Source: Deltaproteobacteria bacterium (GTDB taxonomy: Bacteria > JAGRBM01 > JAHCIT01). Taken from it: a DNA stretch of 64,000 nucleotides. Position 1 is the stretch's first letter. Each line of letters starts with the position of its first letter. Below the pieces are notes generated by a model, which worked only from the letters and a program-made list of their open reading frames with translations, ran no database searches and was not told the origin of the DNA. The DNA lies in contig JAHCIT010000007.1 in the NCBI GenBank assembly GCA_026129095.1, positions 62,001-126,000 of the forward strand, read 5' to 3'. The position numbers and the translations under genes were made by a program. This document shows positions 2,421 through 26,366 of the stretch, in pieces.

Positions 2421-4340
2421 ATGGACCTGATCGTCGGGATGTTCCGGCTACTCCGAACACCGTCGGCTTGGCTGTTGGCGGCAGCCTTGGGGCTTACTGC
2501 CCATGCGATTCGCTTCAATCCGGCATCCGGGTTTGTCACCGGCATTGACAACAATCACCAGATTGCCATTCTCGAATGGTTCTACCGGTCGGTCGCCCTC
2601 AGTGCCGGTCCGCTTCACTCGCCCGACTTCTACTATCCTGAACCGGGGATGCTCCTGACCTCGGAAGTCCCGGTGGTGCAGGGACTGGTTTACACAGCCC
2701 TGCGGACTGCAGGCGCCAACAATTTTCTTGCGTTCAATCTGGCACTTGCATTGCTGCTGTACGGAACAATGGCCGCCGCCTATGCGGCCTTCCGCTACGA
2801 GCGGTTTTCCCCCGAAGCATCAATTATCGCGGCGATATTCTATGCGAATTACGATGCCTGGCTGGTCTATCTTCCGGGGTCCATGTGGTATGGAGGCGGA
2901 TTTGGTCTGCCGCTCGCCTGGATGGGTCTGACCTGTTACCGGCGAGGCGACCACCGCGGAGCGTGGTGGCTCGCCGCATCTCTGGTAGTCCAGTTCCTTG
3001 CAAGCATGACGCTGGCCATGGCGGCCCTTCTGCTTGCCGGCACCAGGGCAGTTTCAGACCCGTATTTGCGCCGCCGTTTCCCGGCATTTTGCGCCGCCTG
3101 CATCCCGGTCGCCTGGTGCGGGCTCGCTTATGCCAACGCAGCCAGCCAACTGGCGCCATACCCTGCAAGGCTCGGCCTTGGCTTTCTCCTTTCCCAGCAG
3201 TTCTTCTACCGGCTCGATTTGTCCAATTTCGTCCCGTGGATTGGCGACTGCTTCGCCTCCGGGTTCAGTCACTTCATTCGCTGGCCCAGTTCCCACGATG
3301 CCTTCTCACCGTTCCTTATTCTCTGGACGGCATTTGCATCCATCGCGTGCTGGCAACACCGGACAAGCCGGCAAGCGACCAGCCATACGCTGCGAGTAAC
3401 AGCCGTAGCCCTAGCCTGCCTGATCGCATTATCTGTGACCGTGCTGATACACTGGAAGCTGTCTGCACAGTTTGGCCTCCCGATCTGGTTCTGGATTGCG
3501 ACGTTTTGTTTCTGGACCGGCATTCTCTGGACTAGCAAGCGGCTAACAGCTGCGGCGACAACCGGTCCTGCCAGTGAGCTTCTTACACTGAACACAATAA
3601 TGGGACTGTCGTTTCTCACAGCATTGGGCCCAGTGATTTTCGTGTCGGGTGCGCCGGTCGCAGCCGGACCGGCTGCATTCCTTGATCTTGTGGTTCCGGG
3701 CTTTGCCCAGATGCGTGTCACAGCGCGCACATTGCTGGCCGGCGGCTTTGCCCTGTGCATGTTGCTGGCGATGGCCGTGCACAGGTTCTTGTCCCATCGT
3801 GACTGGGCCAAAACAGTCGCCACACTCTTGGCCACCGGGCAACTGCTCATGGTTACCCACCGGCTACCATGGCCTGACCCTGCTGGCCGGACGACTGATA
3901 TTCGTATTCATGCAGAAGCCTGCCCAAGCTGCTCCGATATCGCACTCGGCACCGTACCGCTTCCGTACCAATGGATACTGGCGCACGGGAAAGCCCCACT
4001 GCTGGAACTTCCCGCCAGCCAAGGATTCGTGGATGATCCTGATCTCAACCATGACACCATCTACCTGTTTTACTGGCTTCTTGATGGAATACCCCGGCTC
4101 AATGGTGTCACTTCAAAAGCGCCTCTGTCTTACCGGCGTTTCGCTGAACAACTGGGCCATTTCCCAGACACCACGACCCTCTCCAGTATCCGCGAACGTG
4201 GCGCACGCTGGCTGGTCGTTCATGGAGACCGGTATCCACTGAATGAATGGAAACGGATTCAGGCCGCACTCGATCCGCCGCCTGAAGGGCTCCGCGTGGA
4301 ACAAAAATGGGGACCGGTCTGGCTCTTTCGGGTAGATTAG
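2421..4340 (+). CDS. Polytopic membrane protein, probable GT-C/YfhO-like glycosyltransferase
   Basis: About 12 hydrophobic segments; FYYPEP early loop; VPGFAQMRVTAR; C-terminal soluble domain LLELP...LNG. Confidence 0.65.
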   Translation: MDLIVGMFRLLRTPSAWLLAAALGLTAHAIRFNPASGFVTGIDNNHQIAILEWFYRSVALSAGPLHSPDFYYPEPGMLLTSEVPVVQGLVYTALRTAGANNFLAFNLALALLLYGTMAAAYAAFRYERFSPEASIIAAIFYANYDAWLVYLPGSMWYGGGFGLPLAWMGLTCYRRGDHRGAWWLAASLVVQFLASMTLAMAALLLAGTRAVSDPYLRRRFPAFCAACIPVAWCGLAYANAASQLAPYPARLGLGFLLSQQFFYRLDLSNFVPWIGDCFASGFSHFIRWPSSHDAFSPFLILWTAFASIACWQHRTSRQATSHTLRVTAVALACLIALSVTVLIHWKLSAQFGLPIWFWIATFCFWTGILWTSKRLTAAATTGPASELLTLNTIMGLSFLTALGPVIFVSGAPVAAGPAAFLDLVVPGFAQMRVTARTLLAGGFALCMLLAMAVHRFLSHRDWAKTVATLLATGQLLMVTHRLPWPDPAGRTTDIRIHAEACPSCSDIALGTVPLPYQWILAHGKAPLLELPASQGFVDDPDLNHDTIYLFYWLLDGIPRLNGVTSKAPLSYRRFAEQLGHFPDTTTLSSIRERGARWLVVHGDRYPLNEWKRIQAALDPPPEGLRVEQKWGPVWLFRVD

Positions 4341-4732
4341 CCGTTGCCAGGACCGGGGCCGAGCCGCCGTTCCAGCGCTTCGATCCGCTCCAGAATCCGC
4401 GTCATAACGGCCCGATCAAGGCGAGGTTCCTGAAAAACATTACGGATATCCTTGATCGTACGCTGAAGCTCCAGCGCGTCTTCCTCGAACCGGACGACGT
4501 GACGGGCCGTAAGATCGTTCTGGTTCATGACGTGCCGGAGCTGGCCGAGCACATCGTCGCGGATTCCTTCGGTAGTGGTGTGATATTTTTCAAGCCGCTG
4601 CTCAACCCCATCCAGCCGGGCGTTAAGGCGCGTCTCGGCCCGGCCGATACGGGAGATCGCCCACAATGCCGCTCCCGCTGCCACAACCGACATGGCCCCA
4701 ACCGACGCCCCCAGCAGAAATCCAGCCTCCAT
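4337..4732 (-). CDS. Small TM plus coiled-coil protein (paralog B)
   Basis: 131 aa; core nearly identical to 4741..5175. Confidence 0.8.
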   Translation of the reverse strand: MEAGFLLGASVGAMSVVAAGAALWAISRIGRAETRLNARLDGVEQRLEKYHTTTEGIRDDVLGQLRHVMNQNDLTARHVVRFEEDALELQRTIKDIRNVFQEPRLDRAVMTRILERIEALERRLGPGPGNG

Positions 4733-4740
4733 TTGTTTCC

Positions 4741-5175
4741 CTATCGTTCCGGAGAATGGTCATCCGGGTCGAGACGCCGCTCAATCACTTCAATGCGCTC
4801 AAGAATCCGGTTCATAACAGCCCTATCCAGACGGGGTTCCTGGAACCCATTGCGTACATCCTTGATCGTGCGTTGCAGGGCTACCACGTTTTCCTCGAAT
4901 CTTGTGACGTGCCGCAGAGTCTCTTCTTCCAGCTGGCTGATCCGACCGACAATCAGGTCATTCTGACCCATAACATGGCGAAGCTGGCCAAATACATCAT
5001 CGCGAATACCCTCGGTCGTGGTGTGATACCTTTCGAGCCGCTGTTCGACACCATCCAACCGGGCATTCAGACGTGTTTCAGCCCTGCCGATCCGGGAGAT
5101 CGCCCACAGTGCCGCTCCTGCTGCCGCGGCAGCGAGCGAAACCAGAACGATGAATATCATCGTGGCCAGGCTCAT
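4741..5175 (-). CDS. Small TM plus coiled-coil protein (paralog A)
   Basis: ATG at 5175 overlaps the radical SAM stop (ATGA); paralog of 4337..4732. Confidence 0.8.
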   Translation of the reverse strand: MSLATMIFIVLVSLAAAAAGAALWAISRIGRAETRLNARLDGVEQRLERYHTTTEGIRDDVFGQLRHVMGQNDLIVGRISQLEEETLRHVTRFEENVVALQRTIKDVRNGFQEPRLDRAVMNRILERIEVIERRLDPDDHSPER

Positions 5176-6608
5176 ACGCGCCCCCGGAAAATACACACAG
5201 TCGGCGCAGTGAGACACGGGTCAGCAAATACCCGGTCCAGCATCTGCTGGCGGACCTGGATCGCTTTTGGTGAATTCCACACCGTCTCGAATGGATCACG
5301 CGAGAGGTCCCCGATATATTCGCTCAGTTCGTCATGGTAGTAACACATACGAACCTGCCCATCCTCGGCCACCACCGCTCTGGACCACGGAACCATGCAT
5401 TTCTCCGGGTGCTGGTGGCGCTCGTTCATATGGGCGGAGATTACCTTCTGTTCATCAGTCAACTGCTTTGAGAGAAACCCCTGCCCCACGAAATTGACAG
5501 GCAGCGAGTAAAGCTTGGCCCGGCGATAGGCCTCAGTCAGCAAACGATCATGTTCGACAGGATCAATTTTCAGCTGGGCTGCATAATCGAATACATATTC
5601 GCCGCCGCCCGGCATCACCCGGCTGGCAGTCCAATCGAAGGTGGGGCCGGGGTTCATGTGAAACAGGTCGACACCGTCCACACCCAGCCGGGCGGCCAGA
5701 TCAATAAACTCGGGCAGTTCAGGCAATGCCTCGCGCGTAATACACATGTTGACTATGAGGGTCGGATACTTCCGTCCCATGCTTTTCTTCAGCTGCTGAA
5801 GATTCCCTATGTTTTCGACAATCTTGGCGAACCCGGGCCCCCGGAGTTTCGCATGTGTTTCGGCGCGGGCAGCATCGAGACTGACATTGATGCAGTCCAC
5901 ACGGCGGCCTTCGATGAGGCGCCGGGCCAGTGGTTCGTCCAGCGTGATGCCATGAGTATTGAACCGGACTTTCGTGGGAGGATCTACCAGCCCTAGCACG
6001 TCATCAAAGTAGCGCGCATAAGTCGGCTCGCCCCCACAATGAAGGTACAGGATGTCCAGGTGCCGGAAGACCGGCACGAGATTCACCAGCACGTTCGGAC
6101 TCATGTCGAATTCATCGTTTTGAGTTCGCTTGTTCCGCTCGCAGATGCCGCATGGGGGATTGATGTTGCAGCGGGTGGTAAGCGCCAGCGTCATTTCTTC
6201 CGGATACGAGGTGACACGCGTGATGCCAGCCTCGAACTCTTCCCGCAACCGGCGCCGGTTCTGTTCAGGAGCGGCCAGGCGGGATTCTGCGCTCACCCCG
6301 ATGCTGCCAGCACGGGTCTGCCAACCGGCAGTTTCATCCAGCTTCTGCTCCAGCTGGTCCAAACGTTCCATCATCTTGGCCAGATGTGGCCGCAGGAAGG
6401 CACCCGGTTCGTCTGGTCGTGTGCCGGTTTCCGCCGCCACTGAACTACCAGTATGATTCAGGGATTCCCTAACCTGCTGATGGACCTGATCGAACCGGTC
6501 GTGCATCCGGGTTTCAAACCGCCCCACGCGTGAAATGATGAACAGCGCGGTCCCCAGGATCAGGAGCACCAGTCCGAAACCGGCAGTAACGATCAGCAAC
6601 TCGTTCAT
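5172..6608 (-). CDS. Membrane-anchored radical SAM/SPASM-domain protein
   Basis: CNINPPCGIC; GGEP; VSLDA; C-terminal CMVPW...DGQVRMC...IGDL...VWNS...C...C; N-terminal TM plus coiled coil. Confidence 0.88.
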   Translation of the reverse strand: MNELLIVTAGFGLVLLILGTALFIISRVGRFETRMHDRFDQVHQQVRESLNHTGSSVAAETGTRPDEPGAFLRPHLAKMMERLDQLEQKLDETAGWQTRAGSIGVSAESRLAAPEQNRRRLREEFEAGITRVTSYPEEMTLALTTRCNINPPCGICERNKRTQNDEFDMSPNVLVNLVPVFRHLDILYLHCGGEPTYARYFDDVLGLVDPPTKVRFNTHGITLDEPLARRLIEGRRVDCINVSLDAARAETHAKLRGPGFAKIVENIGNLQQLKKSMGRKYPTLIVNMCITREALPELPEFIDLAARLGVDGVDLFHMNPGPTFDWTASRVMPGGGEYVFDYAAQLKIDPVEHDRLLTEAYRRAKLYSLPVNFVGQGFLSKQLTDEQKVISAHMNERHQHPEKCMVPWSRAVVAEDGQVRMCYYHDELSEYIGDLSRDPFETVWNSPKAIQVRQQMLDRVFADPCLTAPTVCIFRGRV

Positions 6609-6692
6609 CTGTAGCAAAGCGTAACGCCCCCTGCACAGCCGAAACAACCGGATTGGTGCAGACCCCGCTTTGACAACATTGTGATACGTGAT

Positions 6693-7193
6693 TCAGGGGG
6701 TCGAAGCGCCTTCGGGACTGTCCTGGCTAGTAGCATTCGCGGCCTTTTCCGCTGCCTGGGCGAACTCCTCCGCCGTGCCGCTCAACGAGCGGATAAAGTG
6801 GATGATCGACCATGTCTCCCGGGGCCGCAAATGCTTCCAAGAGGGCATCCCCTTCATGGGACGGCCCATCTGGATCGTGAGATAAAGTTCCGTGTCGGAT
6901 CTCGATCGGCTCCACTCCGGCCGGTTGAAGTGTGGAGCCGTCGGCCGCATGGCGATCGTCGGGCCAGGTGCTCCAGTGGCGCTGTGGCAGGCCATGCACG
7001 CAAGCTGATACGTTTTCTTCCCGGCATCGAGGCTTTCCTGCGTAAGGGGCACGGGATTGTAGCTGCTGCCCAATCCCTGCGATGGAACTCCATGCTCCGC
7101 AGCATCCCCCGAAGCTAAAGGCTCAGGGCGAGGCTGGCAGGCGAAGAAAAGGGAAGCCGCAATCAAGAAACCAAGAGAGGGGAACCGGTTCAT
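6693..7193 (-). CDS. Monoheme c-type cytochrome lipoprotein
   Basis: Lipobox FFAC; CMACH heme motif; GMPSW axial Met. Confidence 0.85.
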   Translation of the reverse strand: MNRFPSLGFLIAASLFFACQPRPEPLASGDAAEHGVPSQGLGSSYNPVPLTQESLDAGKKTYQLACMACHSATGAPGPTIAMRPTAPHFNRPEWSRSRSDTELYLTIQMGRPMKGMPSWKHLRPRETWSIIHFIRSLSGTAEEFAQAAEKAANATSQDSPEGASTP

Positions 7194-7274
7194 GGCACAT
7201 TTACATAAAGCCTGACTGTTATCCCGTCAAAACAGGTATGGCCCTGCCCAGCGGGATTTGATACGTTAACGCCC

Positions 7275-9068
7275 ATGTCCGGAACCCTTACGGAACTGAT
7301 CATCGAACGGCACTCGAAGTCGGGCGAGCAGCCCGCCATTCGTTTCTGGAACGGCAAGGAATGGATCTCTCTTACCTGGTCGGAATTTATCTGGCGGGTG
7401 GCAGAGATCGGTCTCGGCCTTGAGGTGACAGGTCTCAAGCGCGGCGAAGTAGTGAATATCCTCGCGGCCACCGGCTTCGACTGGGCAGCCATTGATCTGG
7501 GAACGCTGGTCGCCGGAGGAGTTAGTGTCGGCCTGTATCCGACCCTCACTCCTGAACAGGTACGCTATCAGCTCGATCATTCGGATTCCGTCTGCCTGTT
7601 TGTCGAAAACCAGGCACTCTATGACCGGATCAGGCCCATCCTCAGGGAGCTTACCAAGCTCCGTTACATCATCGCCATCAATCCTGTCACCGATCCTGCC
7701 GAATCCCGGCTCATGCCGCTGGAAGCGGTGCTCAGCAAGGGCGCGAACATGAATGCCCGGGACTCAACAACCTGGATGCACCGGGCCAACCAGGCATCAC
7801 CCGACGATCTGGCTGTCCTGGTCTACACGTCAGGAACCACCGGCCCGCCCAAGGGGGCGATGCTCACGCACCGGAATATCCGGGCCTTCGTGGACCGGAT
7901 TCCCGAAATGCTGCCAATCAAGGGAACCGATCACACAGTCGCTTTCCTGCCAATGGCACATGTGGCCGAACGCGTAGTGGGCCACTACGGCCGGCTGAAT
8001 ACCGGGGCATCGGTCACCTTTGCCCGTTCGCCGGAGACACTGGTGGAAGATATCGGCCTCGCCAAACCGGACTTCTTTGGATCAGTCCCGCGCATATTCG
8101 AGAAAATCCATGGGAAATTTGTCGAGGGACTGGAACGGATGCCACCGGAAAAACGGCGGCTTGCCGAATGGGCCGTGGATATGGGCCGCCAGCACAGTCG
8201 CGTTATCCAGCGGCGGGGAAAGCCGGGCTTGTGGCTCTCGATCCGTCACCGGGTCGCCAAGGCTCTCGTTCTCGGCAAGCTCAAGGACAAGCTGGGCGGC
8301 CGGGTCCGGTTCCTGATCTCAGGAGCCGCTCCCATCAGTTACGACCTGCTCGAGTTTTTTCATGCTTTCGACCTCTTGCCACTGGAGGTTTATGGACTGA
8401 CCGAATCGTCGGCCATTTGCACCGCCAATACTCCGGATGCCTACCGGTTTGGATCCGTTGGGAAGGCCATACCAGGCATCGAAATACAGATTGCCCCGGA
8501 CGGTGAAATCCTCATCAAGGGCGATCTGGTATTCAAAGGATATTTCAAGGAGCCCGGAGCGACAGCCGAAACGTTTCGTGACGGATGGCTCTGCACGGGC
8601 GACATCGGTGAGCTGGATTCAGATGGTTTTCTGAAGATCACCGATCGCAAGAAAAACATCATCATTACCGCTGGCGGCAAGAACATAGCCCCGGCGGGCA
8701 TCGAGAACCTTCTGAAATCCCATCCGCTGGTGGGACAGGCCCTCTACCACGGCGACCGGCGCAAGTTCCCGAGTGCGCTTATCGTCCTGGACCCGGAAGC
8801 TGCTCCGGCCTGGGCGAAATCCCGGAACCTGCCTCCCACTCTAGCCGAACTTGCCCGCCACCCCGATCTGCTGGCCGAAATCGGCACACACGTCGAAAAG
8901 GTGAACCAGTCGCTTGCCCAGTACGAACAGGTCAAAAAATGGATGGTTGTCCCCGAAGAGTTTACCGTTGACAACGGCCTGCTTACCTCGACCCTCAAGG
9001 TCAGGCGCAAGGAAGTGGAAACCCGGTACCGGGAAGTGCTGGACGGCTTCTATCAGGGCGAACACTGA
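7275..9068 (+). CDS. Long-chain fatty acid-CoA ligase
   Basis: YTSGTTGPPKG; YGLTE; TGDIG; DRKK. Confidence 0.92.
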   Translation: MSGTLTELIIERHSKSGEQPAIRFWNGKEWISLTWSEFIWRVAEIGLGLEVTGLKRGEVVNILAATGFDWAAIDLGTLVAGGVSVGLYPTLTPEQVRYQLDHSDSVCLFVENQALYDRIRPILRELTKLRYIIAINPVTDPAESRLMPLEAVLSKGANMNARDSTTWMHRANQASPDDLAVLVYTSGTTGPPKGAMLTHRNIRAFVDRIPEMLPIKGTDHTVAFLPMAHVAERVVGHYGRLNTGASVTFARSPETLVEDIGLAKPDFFGSVPRIFEKIHGKFVEGLERMPPEKRRLAEWAVDMGRQHSRVIQRRGKPGLWLSIRHRVAKALVLGKLKDKLGGRVRFLISGAAPISYDLLEFFHAFDLLPLEVYGLTESSAICTANTPDAYRFGSVGKAIPGIEIQIAPDGEILIKGDLVFKGYFKEPGATAETFRDGWLCTGDIGELDSDGFLKITDRKKNIIITAGGKNIAPAGIENLLKSHPLVGQALYHGDRRKFPSALIVLDPEAAPAWAKSRNLPPTLAELARHPDLLAEIGTHVEKVNQSLAQYEQVKKWMVVPEEFTVDNGLLTSTLKVRRKEVETRYREVLDGFYQGEH

Positions 9069-9959
9069 ATGAGGCTGGTCTCATTTGATGTAAAACGCCG
9101 GGCAGCACTCAGGCGGGCTGGCTTCTGGAAGGATTATCTGGTCGCCGGGCACCGCAACGATCTGGTGGGCGAATCAGGCAAACTGGCATTCTTCATGGTT
9201 CTGGCTTCGCTCCCGTTCGCGCTGCTGGTATTCACCGTCATCAGCCTTCTCCCCACCGAGGGGATGGAAACCGTGCTCGTCGACACGCTTGCCCGTCTGG
9301 TCCCCCGCCCGGCAGTGCCCGTTCTCAAGCAGAACCTTGTCAATACGCTGTCAACGAATGCGGGAGCTACTGTCTGGGTAGGGGCTCTTGGGTCAATCCT
9401 GATCGCCGCACGTGGAGTTGCTGTCTTTGAAACCAACATCAACCGCGCCCGCGGAACCACCGACGAGCGTTCCTATCTGCGGGCCTGGTTTGAGCGCATC
9501 GTCATTTCCGCAGTTCTCGGAATGCTCATGTCTGCGGCACCCTTGATCCTGCTCTCCGGCTGGCGGATAACGGAGTTTCTCGCTTCCCAGCTTCATACAC
9601 CCCAGCTCACGCTGACACTCTGGCATGTGACACGTTATGCGGTCGTCATCCTGATGGTGACACTGGCAGCGTCGGTCCTGTATGCCGTCGGTACTGCCAA
9701 TGACCGGCCCTGGCGATGGTTTACCGCCGGGACACTGATGGCTACTGCCGGCTGGCTTTCGGGTTCACTGATATTCAAGGCCCTGCTCGGCCGCTTCCGC
9801 GACTATAACGTGATCTACGGATCGCTGGGCTCGATATTCATCACCATCACCTGGATATACATGAGTTGCCTGTTCTTCATTGCTGGCGCCTGGCTGGATG
9901 GTTCGCTCGACAAGGCCGTCAACGGCGAGACGGCCCCGACCCCGGCGGCAATTGCCTGA
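9069..9959 (+). CDS. YihY/BrkB family membrane protein
   Basis: LAFF...SLPF; YNVIYGSLGSI...WIY. Confidence 0.88.
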   Translation: MRLVSFDVKRRAALRRAGFWKDYLVAGHRNDLVGESGKLAFFMVLASLPFALLVFTVISLLPTEGMETVLVDTLARLVPRPAVPVLKQNLVNTLSTNAGATVWVGALGSILIAARGVAVFETNINRARGTTDERSYLRAWFERIVISAVLGMLMSAAPLILLSGWRITEFLASQLHTPQLTLTLWHVTRYAVVILMVTLAASVLYAVGTANDRPWRWFTAGTLMATAGWLSGSLIFKALLGRFRDYNVIYGSLGSIFITITWIYMSCLFFIAGAWLDGSLDKAVNGETAPTPAAIA

Positions 9960-9981
9960 CGGGTATGCTATCGGAACCACC

Positions 9982-10953
9982 GTGGCCAGAAACCATTTCG
10001 TCACCGGCGCGGCCGGTTTCATCGGGTTCCATGTCTGCGAGCGGCTGCTCAGGCGCGGCGACCGCGTGATCGGTTTTGACAATCTGGACCCGTTTTATCC
10101 GCGGATCGTCAAGGAAGAAAACCTCAAGACACTCGAGCGGCTCGGGGACTTCCACTTCTGCGCAGGTGATATCCGAAGCCACGAGGATCTCGACGACGCC
10201 ATTCGCGGCCAGCCCAAGATCGATACCATCGCCCATCTGGCCGCCCGTCCCGGCGTGTCCAATTCGATCCTGAACCCGGCCGAATGCATGGATATCAATG
10301 TGCAGGGCACGGTTCAGGTATTCGAGCTGGCCCGACGGGTCCGCCCGGATGTTTGCGTGGCGGCCTCCTCGTCCTCAGTTTACGGCAACCAGACGAAAAT
10401 GCCGTTCGAGGAAGAGGATACCGTAGACCGTCCCATTTCGCCCTACGGTGTCTCCAAACGGGCCTGCGAACTGCTGGCCTATACCTACTGGCTCAATTTC
10501 GGGATTCCCTTCACGGTCATCCGCCCGTTCAGCGTGTATGGCCCGCGTGGACGGCCCGATATGGTGATATACAAGTTCGCCTGGCGGATGCGTGAAGGAA
10601 AGCCCATTCCGGTCTGGGGCAATGGCAGCCAGAAGCGGGATTTCACCTTTATCGGCGACTTCGTCGACGGATTTGTGGCAGCCCTCGACAAGCCGCTCGG
10701 CTATGAGATCATCAATCTCGGCGAAAACCGGCAGGTCGTATTGAACGATCTGATCACGGACATGGAGAAGGCCCTGAACGTGACAGCCATACGCGAGCAC
10801 CAGCCAGCCCGGACTTGGGACATTCCGGCTTCATGGGCATCGGTGGACCGGGCCCGGAAGCTACTCGGTTACGAACCCAAGACAGGCATCCGCGACGGCC
10901 TCCAGCAATTTGTTGACTGGTTCGCTACACTCAAAGAACCGGTCCGGATATAG
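9982..10953 (+). CDS. NAD-dependent sugar-nucleotide epimerase (UDP-glucuronate 4-epimerase-like)
   Basis: TGAAGFIG; ASSSSVYG; SPYGVSK; YGPRGRPDM; GTG start at 9982 inferred. Confidence 0.9.
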   Translation: MARNHFVTGAAGFIGFHVCERLLRRGDRVIGFDNLDPFYPRIVKEENLKTLERLGDFHFCAGDIRSHEDLDDAIRGQPKIDTIAHLAARPGVSNSILNPAECMDINVQGTVQVFELARRVRPDVCVAASSSSVYGNQTKMPFEEEDTVDRPISPYGVSKRACELLAYTYWLNFGIPFTVIRPFSVYGPRGRPDMVIYKFAWRMREGKPIPVWGNGSQKRDFTFIGDFVDGFVAALDKPLGYEIINLGENRQVVLNDLITDMEKALNVTAIREHQPARTWDIPASWASVDRARKLLGYEPKTGIRDGLQQFVDWFATLKEPVRI

Positions 10954-18981: not shown

Positions 18982-19133
18982 AATATATTATTCCCAATAA
19001 TTACAGCGGCTTATAAGCATCTCCCATAACATTCTTGCAAATCGGGTAGCCTCCACTACTGTCATTTGCACGAGAGAACCGGCTTCCATACATACAGGGA
19101 TGTCCGGAAAGAAAGAGGAGGTCTATACGACCA

Positions 19134-19403
19134 ATGAAAGCACGTTCGACTGCAACCATCCTGTCACTTCTCGGCGCAGGCCTGATGGTACTGCCGGGCT
19201 GTCCGCCCAAATCCGAAGAAGCCGCCCCGCAACCGGCAGCGGTCCCGACACCGCCGCCTCCGCCACCCCCGGTTGAAGCCCCGCCACCCGCTGAGGAAGT
19301 TGTTCCAGCTGAGAGCGCCCCGGCAGAAGGCACTGCACCCGCAGAAGGTGCCGCTCCGGCGGAAGCCCCCGCCGGCAATCCGGCTGGCGGACTGACCCCC
19401 TGA
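19134..19403 (+). CDS. Small Pro/Ala/Glu-rich lipoprotein
   Basis: GAGGAGG RBS; LPGC lipobox; APAEG repeats. Confidence 0.75.
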   Translation: MKARSTATILSLLGAGLMVLPGCPPKSEEAAPQPAAVPTPPPPPPPVEAPPPAEEVVPAESAPAEGTAPAEGAAPAEAPAGNPAGGLTP

Positions 19404-19436
19404 TCCCACACGGTTTCCTGAAACAGGAATCCCGGA

Positions 19437-19477
19437 AGAACGCTCGACTCTGCAAGGAGCCGGGCGTTCTGTTTTCT
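19437..19477 (+). terminator. Intrinsic terminator
   Basis: AGAACGCTCGACTC...GAGCCGGGCGTTCT stem followed by GTTTTCT. Confidence 0.65.
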
Positions 19478-19487
19478 GGCCATTCTT

Positions 19488-20093
19488 TCAGGTGAAGTGG
19501 AACTCGTTCTGCTGGGAAACGGGAAGTCCCGCGCACCGCTCACGTATGACCGTCAGCCGTGTCCCCGTTTCCTTCCGGAGCACAGCCAGCTTGCTGCTCA
19601 CCTCGCCGCTCTCGCCAGCCGCACCGCCCGCACTTTCCCGAAGCTTGACGAGAATCGGCCCGGTCAGCTCCGCCGAGCGGATCAGGCCATCCAGAAGCAC
19701 CTGGCGGAATGACTCCACCAGTTCCACGGCCTCCTGCGGCTTGTCATGCCCGCTGTCCAGCCATGTCTTGATCTGGACCATCGCACGCGACGACCAGGCC
19801 CGGTTGAGGCTGCCTGTACTTTCAAGGGCTTTTTCGGTCTCGATCATCCACTCGGCAAGGCGGTCCCGGTCACCGATACTGAGCAGGGGGCCCGAAACGG
19901 CAGTATCGGCTGGCTCAGCCGCGGCATCCCCGCCGCCAGTCCGGGGCCTACGCTGGCGTGGCCGCTTGGCGGCCGGGACCGTCCCGGCCGGAAGAGTTTC
20001 CTTGCCCCTAGCCCATAGCCGATAGCCCAGAATGCCGGTTACAACGCCGCCGGCAAAACTCATCAACAAAAAATATCCAACCGGTGTCAGCAC
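19488..20093 (-). CDS. Hypothetical membrane-anchored protein
   Basis: N-terminal TM, helical body; fills the gap between confident genes. Confidence 0.55.
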   Translation of the reverse strand: MLTPVGYFLLMSFAGGVVTGILGYRLWARGKETLPAGTVPAAKRPRQRRPRTGGGDAAAEPADTAVSGPLLSIGDRDRLAEWMIETEKALESTGSLNRAWSSRAMVQIKTWLDSGHDKPQEAVELVESFRQVLLDGLIRSAELTGPILVKLRESAGGAAGESGEVSSKLAVLRKETGTRLTVIRERCAGLPVSQQNEFHFT

Positions 20094-24033: not shown

Positions 24034-26366
24034 AACCGCTGAATACACTGATCCTTGTACTGGCCGTTTTCTGGCTGTTCGCCCCGGCCTTCGTGAACGG
24101 CGAAACCCTCTGGTCGCGGGATATCGCCGTCAACCACCTGCCGAATCTCGGCTACTGGATGCACCGGGTAGCCGGGGGAGAACTTCCCCACTGGAACCCC
24201 TATTCCGGAGGCGGCATGCCCTATGCCGCTGACCCGGTGCAGGGGACATTCTACCCGCCAAAGCTGCTCATCCTGGCGACGAGCGACCCCGTAACCGCCT
24301 ACAACTGGATCATTGCGCTGCACATGCTGGTTGCGGCGCTGGGCCTTGAACGGCTCCTTCGGGGTGCCGGTCTTGGCGCATTCGGAGCACTGGCCGGGGC
24401 GCTCATCTTCCTGTTCAGCGGGCCTATGGCAGCCGATACCCGGCAAACCCAGTTCATGTTCGCCCTTGCCTGGATGCCCTGGATGCTGGATGCTGCCCGG
24501 TGCCATCTTGCGGCCGGCGACTGCCTTTCGGGCCCGCTGCTTTCTGTATACGGCGGCCTGATACTCCTGGCTGGCGAACCGCAAACTTTCCTTGTCGCGT
24601 GGGGCACCGTGCTCCTTTACTGGTTCTGTACACCCGCTCCTATAGAACCGGGATCTCCGCGGAAAACACTCGCCACCAGCATTGGCAGCGCAGCCCTGTG
24701 GGGATCGCTCGGTATTGGGCTCAGCCTCATCCAGTGGGTTCCGGCCTGGATCATCGCGCAGGAGTCATCCCGTGCGACAGCGGGACTTGGCTATGCGGCG
24801 GCCGCCGAATGCTCCTTCCATCCGGTACGGCTCATGGAACTGTTCCTGCCACAGGTATTCGGCAGCGACATACGGGAGATGACCGCCTGGAGTCCGAAAT
24901 TCTCCTGCAGCGAGCAGATGCCGGTGTTCTATTTCCATTCGTTGTACACCGGCATTGCTACCCTTGCTCTCCTGCCGCTGGTATTCGTGAAAACACGCGA
25001 TGCGCGGCCGGTGGCCGTCCTCAAAACTTTAGCCCTCTGGCTCACGGGGCTGTCACTGGTGATCTCGATGGGACCATCCAGTCCCATTGATCTCTACCGT
25101 ATCCTTTACGACTGGTTGCCATCATGGAACCGGCTCCGGTTCCCGGAGCGGCTACTCCCATGGACGGCACTGGGGTTATCGGTCCTCGCAGCCATCGCCG
25201 CGAACCGATGGGAGACATCGCTCCGACTTCGGGACAGGCGGCGGTGGTACCCGGCTGTGGCTGCGGCAATTCTTCTGGCAATCATTGTTCTGCCTCCCTG
25301 GACGGCGATTTTCTCCAAACTGGACCCCCGTGCCTTCACATGGGCCGAGCCGGTGATCCTCCATGCGGCTAGAGACGGCCTCGCCGCTGCCCTCCTCTCC
25401 CTCGCAGTGTTTGTGATCACCGCCTTACGCTGGCCCGGCACGGCGGGCTTGCTGCTACCGGTTCTGCTGTTCATGGACGCTGGCAAACAGGCGGGGCGGA
25501 CGATGGACTTCTGGCCCGACCCGGCGTTCATCCGGACCGAGCCGGAACTCGCCTCTCATCTCCGCATCCTGAACAGTTCCGGCCCGGCACCGCTCCGGTA
25601 CGGTCCTCCCGGTGTACTGGTTACCCCTGCCAACCAGTATCGGGTGGCCGATCCGGTCACTCTGGCCGCCGCCAAGAACGCTGCCCTCGCCATCGACCAG
25701 GGGATTCTGTACCAGGTATCGGCCACCGCCACCGGCAACACACTGAAGTCGGCACGGCTGGAACTCGCCGAGCATTTTCTGGATCCTGTCCTTTACGAAC
25801 GGCTCCACGGGGCGTCGGTCATCGTCGCCGACCGGCAGTTTCCGCTGGAGAGCAAACAGTTCCACGCCGTTCATGAAACCCCGCAGGTAACAGTCTACCG
25901 GAACGGCGGGAACTCTTCCCGCGTGATCTGTCCCAGCTGGTGGGACAGCCTTCCCGATAACGAGGGAACTGTGCGGTTCATGGCTACCCCCGCCAGCCAG
26001 TTCGATCCCGACACAATGGCCGTCGGTCCGTTTGCCTCGGCCGGCACACGGGACACGCCAGCCGTAACCTGCCGTCTCGTCTCCTGGTCGGAGGAGCGGT
26101 ACGAGATAGAGGTGACACAAACTGACGATGCGCCGGTTGTCCTGCGTGAACTGTTTACCTCCGGATGGACGGCAAGGCTCGAAAATGTCCGCCCGCTCGA
26201 CATCCTGCCTGCCAACCATCTCCACCAGGCGGTGGTGGCTGGCCCCGGTAAGCACCGGATCATTTTTGAATACCGGACGCCGGGGCTTCTGGCGGGGGCC
26301 GCCGGAACGCTACTATCGCTCGTTCTCTTGGGACTGCTTGCCGTCCGACCGCGCCAGACGCACTGA
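24030..26366 (+). CDS. YfhO-family membrane protein (GT-C-like)
   Basis: LPHWNPYSGGGMPYAAD..GTFYP; LRFPER; C-terminal GWTA...AN...PGKH.I.FEY; start may be CTG at 24030, otherwise GTG at 24093. Confidence 0.85.
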   Translation: MKPLNTLILVLAVFWLFAPAFVNGETLWSRDIAVNHLPNLGYWMHRVAGGELPHWNPYSGGGMPYAADPVQGTFYPPKLLILATSDPVTAYNWIIALHMLVAALGLERLLRGAGLGAFGALAGALIFLFSGPMAADTRQTQFMFALAWMPWMLDAARCHLAAGDCLSGPLLSVYGGLILLAGEPQTFLVAWGTVLLYWFCTPAPIEPGSPRKTLATSIGSAALWGSLGIGLSLIQWVPAWIIAQESSRATAGLGYAAAAECSFHPVRLMELFLPQVFGSDIREMTAWSPKFSCSEQMPVFYFHSLYTGIATLALLPLVFVKTRDARPVAVLKTLALWLTGLSLVISMGPSSPIDLYRILYDWLPSWNRLRFPERLLPWTALGLSVLAAIAANRWETSLRLRDRRRWYPAVAAAILLAIIVLPPWTAIFSKLDPRAFTWAEPVILHAARDGLAAALLSLAVFVITALRWPGTAGLLLPVLLFMDAGKQAGRTMDFWPDPAFIRTEPELASHLRILNSSGPAPLRYGPPGVLVTPANQYRVADPVTLAAAKNAALAIDQGILYQVSATATGNTLKSARLELAEHFLDPVLYERLHGASVIVADRQFPLESKQFHAVHETPQVTVYRNGGNSSRVICPSWWDSLPDNEGTVRFMATPASQFDPDTMAVGPFASAGTRDTPAVTCRLVSWSEERYEIEVTQTDDAPVVLRELFTSGWTARLENVRPLDILPANHLHQAVVAGPGKHRIIFEYRTPGLLAGAAGTLLSLVLLGLLAVRPRQTH

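Follow-up and report, generated by a model that had tools for sequence, protein, structure and literature searches.

The stretch of DNA analysed here (the window, 64,000 nucleotides; G000:C21:62001-126000, from a 3.67-Mb genome that is 96.7% complete and belongs to a rare, uncultured group of bacteria) carries a compact three-gene unit in which a radical S-adenosylmethionine (SAM) enzyme with an N-terminal membrane module is followed by two small genes, A and B, whose products are, by sequence comparison, stand-alone homologues of that same module. With a probability of roughly 0.45 the enzyme is membrane-tethered, faces the cytoplasm and modifies a glycan or glycolipid, its anchor replacing the GT4 glycosyltransferase domain of its relatives and assembling with the stand-alone paralogues. 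Relatives of the catalytic domain lie in sugar-chain gene clusters, and so the unit probably serves as a membrane platform, peculiar to this lineage, on which an enzyme modifies glycans, and not as a peptide-modifying system. How the proteins lie in the membrane, that they assemble physically, and which substrate and reaction are involved are what we infer in that reading.

The shared membrane module and its distribution

The open reading frames (ORFs) agree with the layout that the earlier note had described, three co-oriented and tightly spaced genes on the minus strand that are joined by an ATGA overlap and then separated by 8 nt (Table 1). The start of the enzyme is the ATG used by all orthologues, and an in-frame TTG further upstream at 6647 finds no support in them. 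At the other end of the unit the stop codons of gene B (4337-4732, minus strand) and of a convergent gene on the plus strand (2421-4340) overlap at 4337-4340 (TTAG/CTAA), and so there is no space for a terminator between the two. A promoter and terminator scan of 4000-7400 gave nothing above shuffles.

Small A and small B are 75% identical (E 3e-66). BLASTP of the enzyme N-terminus against A and B recovers the juxtamembrane stretch only (E 1e-4 and 3e-7). When a profile of four enzyme N-termini is aligned by hhalign to a profile of seven small proteins the probability is 97.6% (E 4e-12) and both ends align collinearly, namely the end of the transmembrane (TM) helix with the SRxGRxETRxxxRxD that follows it, and then a C-terminal helix (EP..R....R..ER...LE); some 45 small-protein residues between these ends have no counterpart in the enzyme. 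In composition-preserving controls (3000 shuffles, enzyme N-terminus against four small proteins) enzyme residues 1-95 score 71-80 against 28 +/- 5 for the shuffles, with 0/3000 reaching the score. The soluble part of the enzyme module alone scores 53-65 against 27 +/- 5 (0-1/3000), and the C-terminal helix alone 38-43 against 20 +/- 4 (0-7/3000), marginal when taken by itself, yet collinear with the rest. Invariant across the 12-row module alignment are L23, S27, R28, G30, R31, E33, T34, R35, R39, P103, R107 and R116. The match of the enzyme N-terminus to both ends of the small proteins, as claimed in the earlier note, thus stands, also when it is set against shuffled controls, and the module common to the enzyme and the small proteins is a case of true homology.

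All three proteins have one hydrophobic helix at the N-terminus, with no basic residues before it and an arginine cluster after it. For the enzyme the 19-residue Kyte-Doolittle maximum is 2.5, at residue 4, and a second hydrophobic segment is absent; an acidic N-terminus precedes the TM helix and SRVGRFETR follows it. The positive-inside rule would then place most of each of the three proteins in the cytoplasm, which is also the location that a radical SAM domain requires. The AlphaFold2 (AF2) model of the enzyme has helices at 2-51 and 72-99 with a low-confidence segment at 52-69 between them, and it is at this linker that the small proteins have, by alignment, their approximately 45 extra helical residues.

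The AF2 model of small B is all-helical (3-71, 75-100 and 107-124). In a crude heptad test of the small-protein helix 26-71, 9 of the 14 a/d positions are hydrophobic, which 0/2000 shuffles reach, and this result supports a coiled-coil character of the small proteins; the pattern is weaker in the shorter helices. Compared with small B and with all single-copy orthologues, small A has an 11-residue insertion (residues 75-85), a length of one hendecad that preserves helical phase in a coiled coil, and of the two copies small B more closely resembles the single orthologue found in the sister genus. The duplication that gave A and B is old, with a synonymous divergence (dS) between them of ~2.2, and a recent duplication artefact is ruled out on the same ground. 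Ratios of nonsynonymous to synonymous substitution (dN/dS) of 0.09-0.16, with one pair saturated, indicate purifying selection on the small genes, which are thus real genes. Prediction of a complex between the enzyme N-terminus and a small protein, made without control runs, gave an ipSAE of 0.01 in both runs, a value that weighs neither for nor against contact.

The module appears to belong to no described family as far as Pfam, NCBIfam, the PDB and 1.84 billion representative proteins extend. Pfam gives no hit above cutoff for the module, with generic coiled-coil and TM families the only matches even at E 10, and NCBIfam gives no hit; small A and small B likewise remain without a family in either Pfam or NCBIfam. 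PDB sequences searched with a profile yielded matches at chance level only (best E 0.13), and a feature search of a protein atlas with the module returned generic small 'hypothetical' clusters and DUF2730 at ~0.90, again chance level. Against the 1.84 billion representatives the module profile finds only two clusters that are real, that of the small protein and that of the enzyme, and three further matches at E ~8e-4 that are coiled-coil repeat proteins. Being confined to these two clusters, the module has no other fusion partners among the representatives and is a lineage-specific invention. A membrane-anchored radical SAM enzyme or module of this kind was not found described in the PMC and bioRxiv literature, subscription journals aside.

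A first search of 5.8 billion proteins returned twelve proteins of the enzyme family. Full-length orthologues that bear the module are present in 4/4 genomes of the window's family; a module-bearing enzyme occurs in 0/2 genomes of the order's other family and in none of 55 more distant genomes, where generic radical SAM matches only were seen. Six relatives of the small protein were found, every one in the same lineage, and in the window's own genome the module occurs at these three genes only. One contig scan matched only the two metagenome-assembled genomes (MAGs) of the sister genus. A metagenome contig (L018) encodes an enzyme of 63% identity that has the module, and the contig ends before a small gene could be seen; the known range of the module is four related MAGs and this one short contig. 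The search of genomes with a module profile that the earlier note had proposed, once run, places the module in the enzyme and the small genes only, within one family-level lineage.

Behind the enzyme, 4/4 genomes have a small gene with the ATGA overlap. In one of them (L009:495-911, G003) the deposited small protein P0021 has 138 aa and the ATG that overlaps the enzyme stop would give 124 aa; because the ATGA overlap is that of the other three genomes, the deposited P0021 probably starts 14 codons early. The three sister-genus genomes have one small gene each and the window's genome has two; the same is true of the source of P0016 and P0017, a near-identical pair of small proteins. The second small gene is specific to the window's genus, and so the description of the module as encoded twice downstream of the enzyme holds for the window's genome and not for the three sister-genus genomes. 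At the 13 loci of module-less relatives described below, unlike in the window's unit, there is no small paralogous gene and no match to the module or small-gene profile. The module on the enzyme and the stand-alone small gene therefore co-occur in 4/4 module genomes against 0/13 module-less loci, which is to say that co-occurrence is kept wherever the enzyme has the module and is not a property of its module-less homologues. Together the co-occurrence, the ATGA overlap and the selection on the small genes fit a membrane assembly of paralogous anchors.

The catalytic domain and its relatives

The canonical radical SAM motif is CX3CX2C, which binds the SAM-cleaving [4Fe-4S] cluster. The window enzyme has CX5CX2C in its place, aligning to the CX3CX2C of BtrN with a 2-residue insertion. 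Spacing variants of the CX5CX2C kind are known within the superfamily, according to an excerpt of PMC9477430. A GGEP motif lies at 192-195, and its G193, E194 and P195 are invariant in the 20-homologue alignment. The enzyme is thus a member of the radical SAM superfamily by its three-Cys motif (in a spacing variant), its GGE motif and its fold. Two further cysteines stand out: C191, directly before GGEP, is invariant in 20/20 homologues and C289 is nearly invariant in the 10-sequence alignment, and either could be a catalytic hydrogen-atom donor or an extra cluster ligand.

C-terminal to the barrel only four cysteines are conserved, C404, C422, C465 and C472. As the excerpt of PMC9477430 defines these domains, SPASM has seven or eight Cys and two auxiliary clusters and twitch three or four Cys and one cluster, and by that definition the enzyme appears twitch-like with one predicted auxiliary cluster, and not a two-cluster SPASM enzyme. 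The term SPASM enzyme used in the earlier note is therefore given up; it holds only as the Pfam label of residues 404-455 (PF13186, 37.2 bits against a cutoff of 21.5). NCBIfam gives partial matches to many SPASM and twitch radical SAM families, all far below their cutoffs, including the twitch model NF033640 over 402-465 (44.8 bits against 170). Pfam PF04055 falls short of E 0.01 on the window enzyme (P0001) and reaches it on homologues, and a Pfam scan finds no GT4 domain in P0001.

The AF2 model of the enzyme has a mean predicted local distance difference test (pLDDT) score of 83.6, with the blocks over 111-390 all at least 86 and later blocks at 66-97. Foldseek matches it to 203 PDB chains at E <= 0.001, and all among the matches listed are radical SAM enzymes, including SuiB, DesII, SkfB, BlsE, anSME, viperin, MoaA and BtrN. 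The sugar-acting BtrN (4m7t), DesII (8hzv) and BlsE (7vob) share the fold at E 3e-7, 2.8e-11 and 2.2e-9; the twitch region of BtrN aligns to enzyme residues 402-457, and the four enzyme cysteines suggest a single auxiliary cluster likewise. Identity to these three is only 13-17%, and the window enzyme differs from them in its CX17C...CX6C spacing, its CX5CX2C and its membrane anchor. Of the SPASM peptide maturases SuiB (5v1s), anSME (4k37) and SkfB (6efn), the first gives the top Foldseek match (E 2.7e-12), and residues 404-455 of the enzyme fit the Pfam model of SPASM; unlike these maturases the window enzyme has no seven/eight-Cys motif, no domain of the RRE type, the recognition element of RiPPs (peptides made on the ribosome that are modified after translation), and no recognisable precursor peptide.

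Genes around the module-less relatives of the catalytic domain were surveyed at 13 metagenomic loci, in a scan of 79 ORFs (70 aa or longer, no further than 4.5 kb from the match, taken greedily by length) from which L032, a weak partial match with 31% identity across 122 residues (E 9e-4), was excluded and in which L018 was counted among the close relatives. A fusion of 773-816 aa, with GT4 N-terminal and the radical SAM catalytic domain C-terminal, is present in 8/13 loci (L020-L026 and L029), and a glycosyltransferase domain is found in the same protein or in a neighbour in 11/13, the exceptions being L019 and L030, the latter a 2.6-kb contig. A gene for a B12-binding radical SAM protein lies directly upstream in seven loci, Wzy_C genes occur in three, a PMT_2 GT-C gene in one, and Wzm/Wzt with a Wzt_C domain in one (L027). 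A further search gave 29 more GT4-fused clusters, of which four carry the source name glycosyltransferase, one is named a MoaA/NifB/PqqE/SkfB family radical SAM enzyme and one hypothetical, the rest being unnamed; those GT4-fused clusters with a named source organism come from Omnitrophota-type MAGs. At L019:5271-6427 an FGE-sulfatase-domain gene is read as two abutting ORFs (310 aa and 74 aa), and the split could be a frameshift or an assembly error.

The fusions, from uncultured bacteria (for example Omnitrophota MAG proteins; P0012 and P0025-P0053), whose members are uncharacterised, are homologous to the window enzyme over the catalytic domain at 37-43% identity. Common to both are CX5CX2C, the invariant Cys191 before GGEP and the four C-terminal Cys, and also the linker residues P114, N117, E124, S134 and P136; in the fusions an N-terminal GT4 of ~420 aa takes the place of the TM/coiled-coil module, and their genes usually lie behind a B12-binding radical SAM gene amid GT4, GT2 and Wzy_C genes. 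Judged by its Cys and GGEP features the window enzyme is a member of this catalytic family, but one without the GT4 domain and without the glycan-assembly neighbours. The module would occupy the position held by GT4 in the relatives, a statement that can be made with moderate confidence, and the gene context points to a role of the catalytic family in glycan or glycolipid assembly in those relatives.

A quick maximum-likelihood tree of 58 catalytic domains, midpoint-rooted and with support from the Shimodaira-Hasegawa-like approximate likelihood-ratio test (SH-aLRT) only, joins the four module-bearing enzymes in one clade (100%). This clade falls within another (95%) that also holds a GT4-fused pair and short stand-alone forms, and the latter is placed beside a 28-member GT4-fused clade.

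A recurrent cassette is seen at L020-L031 (for example L023:2433-7137 and L029:2433-7128), in which a B12-binding radical SAM gene (~750 aa) is followed by the GT4-radical SAM fusion (~815 aa) with CX5CX2C and a four-Cys twitch, and then by more GT4, GT2, Wzy_C or GDSL genes. Its best partial match in NCBIfam is HpnJ, far below cutoff. The cassette is apparently undescribed, and a search of PMC and bioRxiv, subscription journals aside, found no paper on the GT4-radical SAM fusion family.

Neighbouring genes

The gene for a cytochrome c lipoprotein that was said to precede the unit is there, 84 nt upstream of the enzyme on the same strand, with CxxCH and a Cys after a signal-like segment. It is also found upstream in L001, L002, L009 and L018, in L009 by position and length only. 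The gene for a fatty-acid--CoA ligase and that for a YihY/BrkB protein, which diverge from the unit, recur in L001 and L002 (by ORF position and length), with the ligase recognised in L018 by translation, and an OmpL-like porin is a further conserved neighbour. The cytochrome c, ligase, YihY/BrkB and porin genes are kept only among close kin and so carry little weight. A 79%-identical orthologue of the nucleotide-sugar epimerase directly follows the small gene in 3/3 sister-genus genomes; in the window this gene is ~5 kb from the unit and on the opposite strand.

The multi-TM protein encoded by the convergent gene at 2421-4340 has no Pfam hit even at E 10, and its Atlas models match DUF6311/YfhO clusters with template-modelling scores of 0.69-0.74, and so calling it GT-C-like is a lead only. 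In G001 and G002 its orthologues and the enzyme are on different contigs, because of which the gene is placed outside the conserved unit and is ruled out as a member of it. The GT-C-like gene that was described as converging on the unit is present and convergent, but it is specific in that position to the window's genus and is not kept beside the unit in the sister genomes. In G001 it is represented by two tandem paralogues of 41% and 34% identity (L033/L035, G001:C1:557864-561727). Elsewhere in the window a 757-aa ORF (24093-26366) and two ORFs of 180-201 aa (19001-20093) have no Pfam match at E 1e-5 and lie among metabolic genes (acyl-CoA carboxylase subunits, RlmN and DAHP synthase).

Table 1. 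Features of the unit and its neighbours, in window positions
Feature	Position	Strand	Remarks
Convergent multi-TM protein, DUF6311/YfhO-like	2421..4340	+	639 aa; Atlas structure matches
Small B (P0003), TM coiled-coil protein	4337..4732	-	131 aa; 8-nt gap after A
Small A (P0002), TM coiled-coil protein	4741..5175	-	144 aa; ATG overlaps enzyme TGA (ATGA)
Enzyme P0001 (radical SAM/twitch-type, N-terminal membrane module)	5172..6608	-	478 aa; ORF and translation
C-terminal auxiliary-cluster domain of enzyme, C404, C422, C465, C472	5175..5408	-	twitch-like; conserved in 10- and 20-homologue alignments
Radical SAM cluster motif, C147-x5-C153-x2-C156	6141..6170	-	CX5CX2C, non-canonical; invariant in 10/10 and 20/20 aligned homologues
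Second shared helix of enzyme, EP...R....R..ERL..LE.KL	6312..6395	-	aa 72-99; helix 72-99 in AF2 model; aligns to small-protein C-terminal helix
Low-confidence linker of enzyme	6396..6455	-	aa 52-71; pLDDT <50 over 52-69
Juxtamembrane helix of enzyme with invariant SRxGRxETRxxxR	6456..6536	-	aa 25-51; within helix 2-51 of AF2 model
Single N-terminal TM helix of enzyme	6531..6599	-	~aa 4-26; N-out/C-in from charge distribution
Exported c-type cytochrome, probable lipoprotein	6693..7193	-	Pfam Cytochrome_CBB3, Cytochrom_C; CxxCH; Cys after signal-like segment
FadD11-like fatty-acid--CoA ligase	7275..9068	+	divergent conserved neighbour
YihY/BrkB membrane protein	9069..9959	+	divergent conserved neighbour
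NAD-dependent nucleotide-sugar epimerase/dehydratase	9880..10953	+	true start probably near 9982

What the unit may do

In the favoured reading the enzyme anchor would start with an N-out TM helix, continue with a juxtamembrane helix rich in Arg and end with a second helix, and the small proteins would be longer stand-alone paralogues of that anchor, made by coupled translation, which join it like with like through the TM/juxtamembrane helix and through the C-terminal helix. The hetero-oligomeric platform so formed at the inner membrane face would present the catalytic domain to a membrane-bound substrate, either a polyprenyl-linked glycan or a glycolipid, and the interface motif with its many arginines may touch anionic lipid head groups. 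As far as the sequence goes, the reaction could be an epimerisation, an oxidation, a dehydration or C-C chemistry. The GT4 domain fused to the enzyme in relatives would there fill the role of the anchor, that of bringing the enzyme to its substrate. A parallel exists in the b and b' subunits of F-type ATP synthase, paralogous single-pass proteins with N-terminal TM segments and long cytoplasmic helices that form a homodimer where there is one gene and a heterodimer where there are two, much as one small gene is found in the sister genus and two in the window; there is no detectable homology (best E 0.13 in the PDB), and a difference is that one of the window's paralogues is fused to an enzyme.

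Several observations weigh against the platform reading. The four module genomes are close kin, and so their synteny and co-occurrence amount to about one or two independent observations. The best Foldseek match, SuiB, is a peptide-modifying enzyme, and the fold cannot separate sugar-acting from peptide-acting members. Stand-alone relatives of 387-415 aa and 45-48% identity, the nearest of those that lack the module, are seen in one locus only, L019, which has no glycosyltransferase and where the neighbours are RecQ and FGE-sulfatase-domain genes, and in the midpoint-rooted tree the join of the module clade to the GT4-fused pair has 87% SH-aLRT and is flagged for long branches. In the surroundings of the window's unit only the epimerase gene and the DUF6311/YfhO-like gene, itself not conserved, have to do with sugars, with no GT4, Wzy or ABC exporter, and the conserved divergent fatty-acid--CoA ligase makes a lipid substrate possible and indeed suggests one. 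The small-protein AF2 model is itself of low confidence (pLDDT 62.8, predicted template-modelling score 0.24).

Instead of binding one another the proteins could share an address: the TM segment, SRxGRxETRxxxR and the C-terminal helix would each time bind the same third component, which could be a membrane protein (such as YihY/BrkB), a membrane domain or the head group of a lipid (polyprenyl diphosphate, for instance), and the small proteins would have a separate or a regulatory, competing role. That the invariant positions are mostly Arg, Glu and Thr at the membrane interface, and are the same in the enzyme and in the small proteins, is what binding to one and the same ligand would lead one to expect; the enzyme does without the middle 45 residues, and the module turned up in no other place. 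We nevertheless hold this to be unlikely, since the ATGA coupling in 4/4 genomes and the heptad pattern are more typical of subunits of one assembly, and no candidate third partner is conserved beyond the synteny of close kin.

The first of the two options in the earlier note is a stalk in which a hetero-oligomeric coiled coil sets the distance of the catalytic domain from the membrane; like WbdD, the enzyme would cap or modify a growing lipid-linked glycan once a defined length is reached. In E. coli O9a WbdD has, as an excerpt of PMC5082667 describes it, a continuous trimeric coiled coil of ~200 Angstrom that acts as a ruler of O-antigen chain length. The likeness, on the same excerpt, is that of a membrane-attached glycan enzyme with its catalytic domain set off by helical, heptad-patterned sequence; the tie of the family to glycan assembly, including one relative (L027) beside Wzm/Wzt with the cap-binding Wzt_C domain, the heptad pattern in helix 26-71 and the hendecad insertion of small A that keeps helical phase would all suit a stalk. 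WbdD is however a kinase/methyltransferase with a C-terminal membrane region and no sequence relation to the window enzyme, in whose unit the Pfam scan finds no kinase or methyltransferase domain, and the window's anchor lies at the N-terminus, is short and broken up, and exists also as stand-alone paralogues. On the enzyme itself the module is in its shortened form, its helices of ~27 and ~28 residues and low-confidence linker comparing poorly with the ~200 Angstrom given in the excerpt of PMC5082667, and the small-protein model has three helices with breaks and not one rod. With no polymerase or ABC exporter beside the unit, and with the module absent from 13/13 module-less loci, 11 of which have glycosyltransferase domains, nothing here supports a ruler of the WbdD type, and a stalk that measures distance is improbable. 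The most novel variant, a self-recognising membrane oligomerisation device in which the enzyme and its paralogues form a stalk whose geometry sets the radical SAM site on a growing lipid-linked glycan, with the insertion of small A and the shortened copy of the enzyme contributing to that geometry, is to be regarded as a long shot.

That the small proteins are themselves the substrates, docked by the common module acting as a self-recognition tag, is a proposal of the earlier note that has lost ground and now seems very doubtful. The Pfam SPASM match, the fold matches to SuiB and other peptide maturases and the position of the small genes immediately downstream, as precursors often are, speak for it, and some radical SAM peptide epimerases require no Cys in their substrate. 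Against it, no small gene accompanies the relatives (0/13 loci), which lie mostly in glycan clusters and are often GT4-fused, and the enzyme has a single auxiliary-cluster motif and no PqqD or RRE match in the Pfam scan. The small proteins are membrane-anchored and of 124-144 aa, contain Cys in 0/7 cases, leave Trp and Tyr unconserved, and are conserved over the full length (59 invariant columns) with no leader/core pattern and no variable core. Both features by which a RiPP maturase is recognised, a leader/core precursor and an RRE, thus appear to be missing from the unit.

The interaction and the topology that the platform reading predicts are easily testable in E. coli, because the anchor and its partners have only 96-144 residues. 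Were the stalk variant true, the capping ruler of WbdD would have its counterpart among radical SAM enzymes, and radical chemistry would for the first time be seen to terminate or mark a polysaccharide chain at the membrane. If the platform reading is confirmed, an uncharacterised family of CX5CX2C twitch radical SAM enzymes, repeatedly fused to GT4 and paired with B12-dependent radical SAM genes, would represent an undescribed radical chemistry on cell-surface glycans or glycolipids, and the novel membrane module, which tethers that catalytic domain in one deep-branching lineage and occurs also as free paralogues, would provide a compact natural test case for the way a soluble enzyme is brought to a substrate bound to the membrane.

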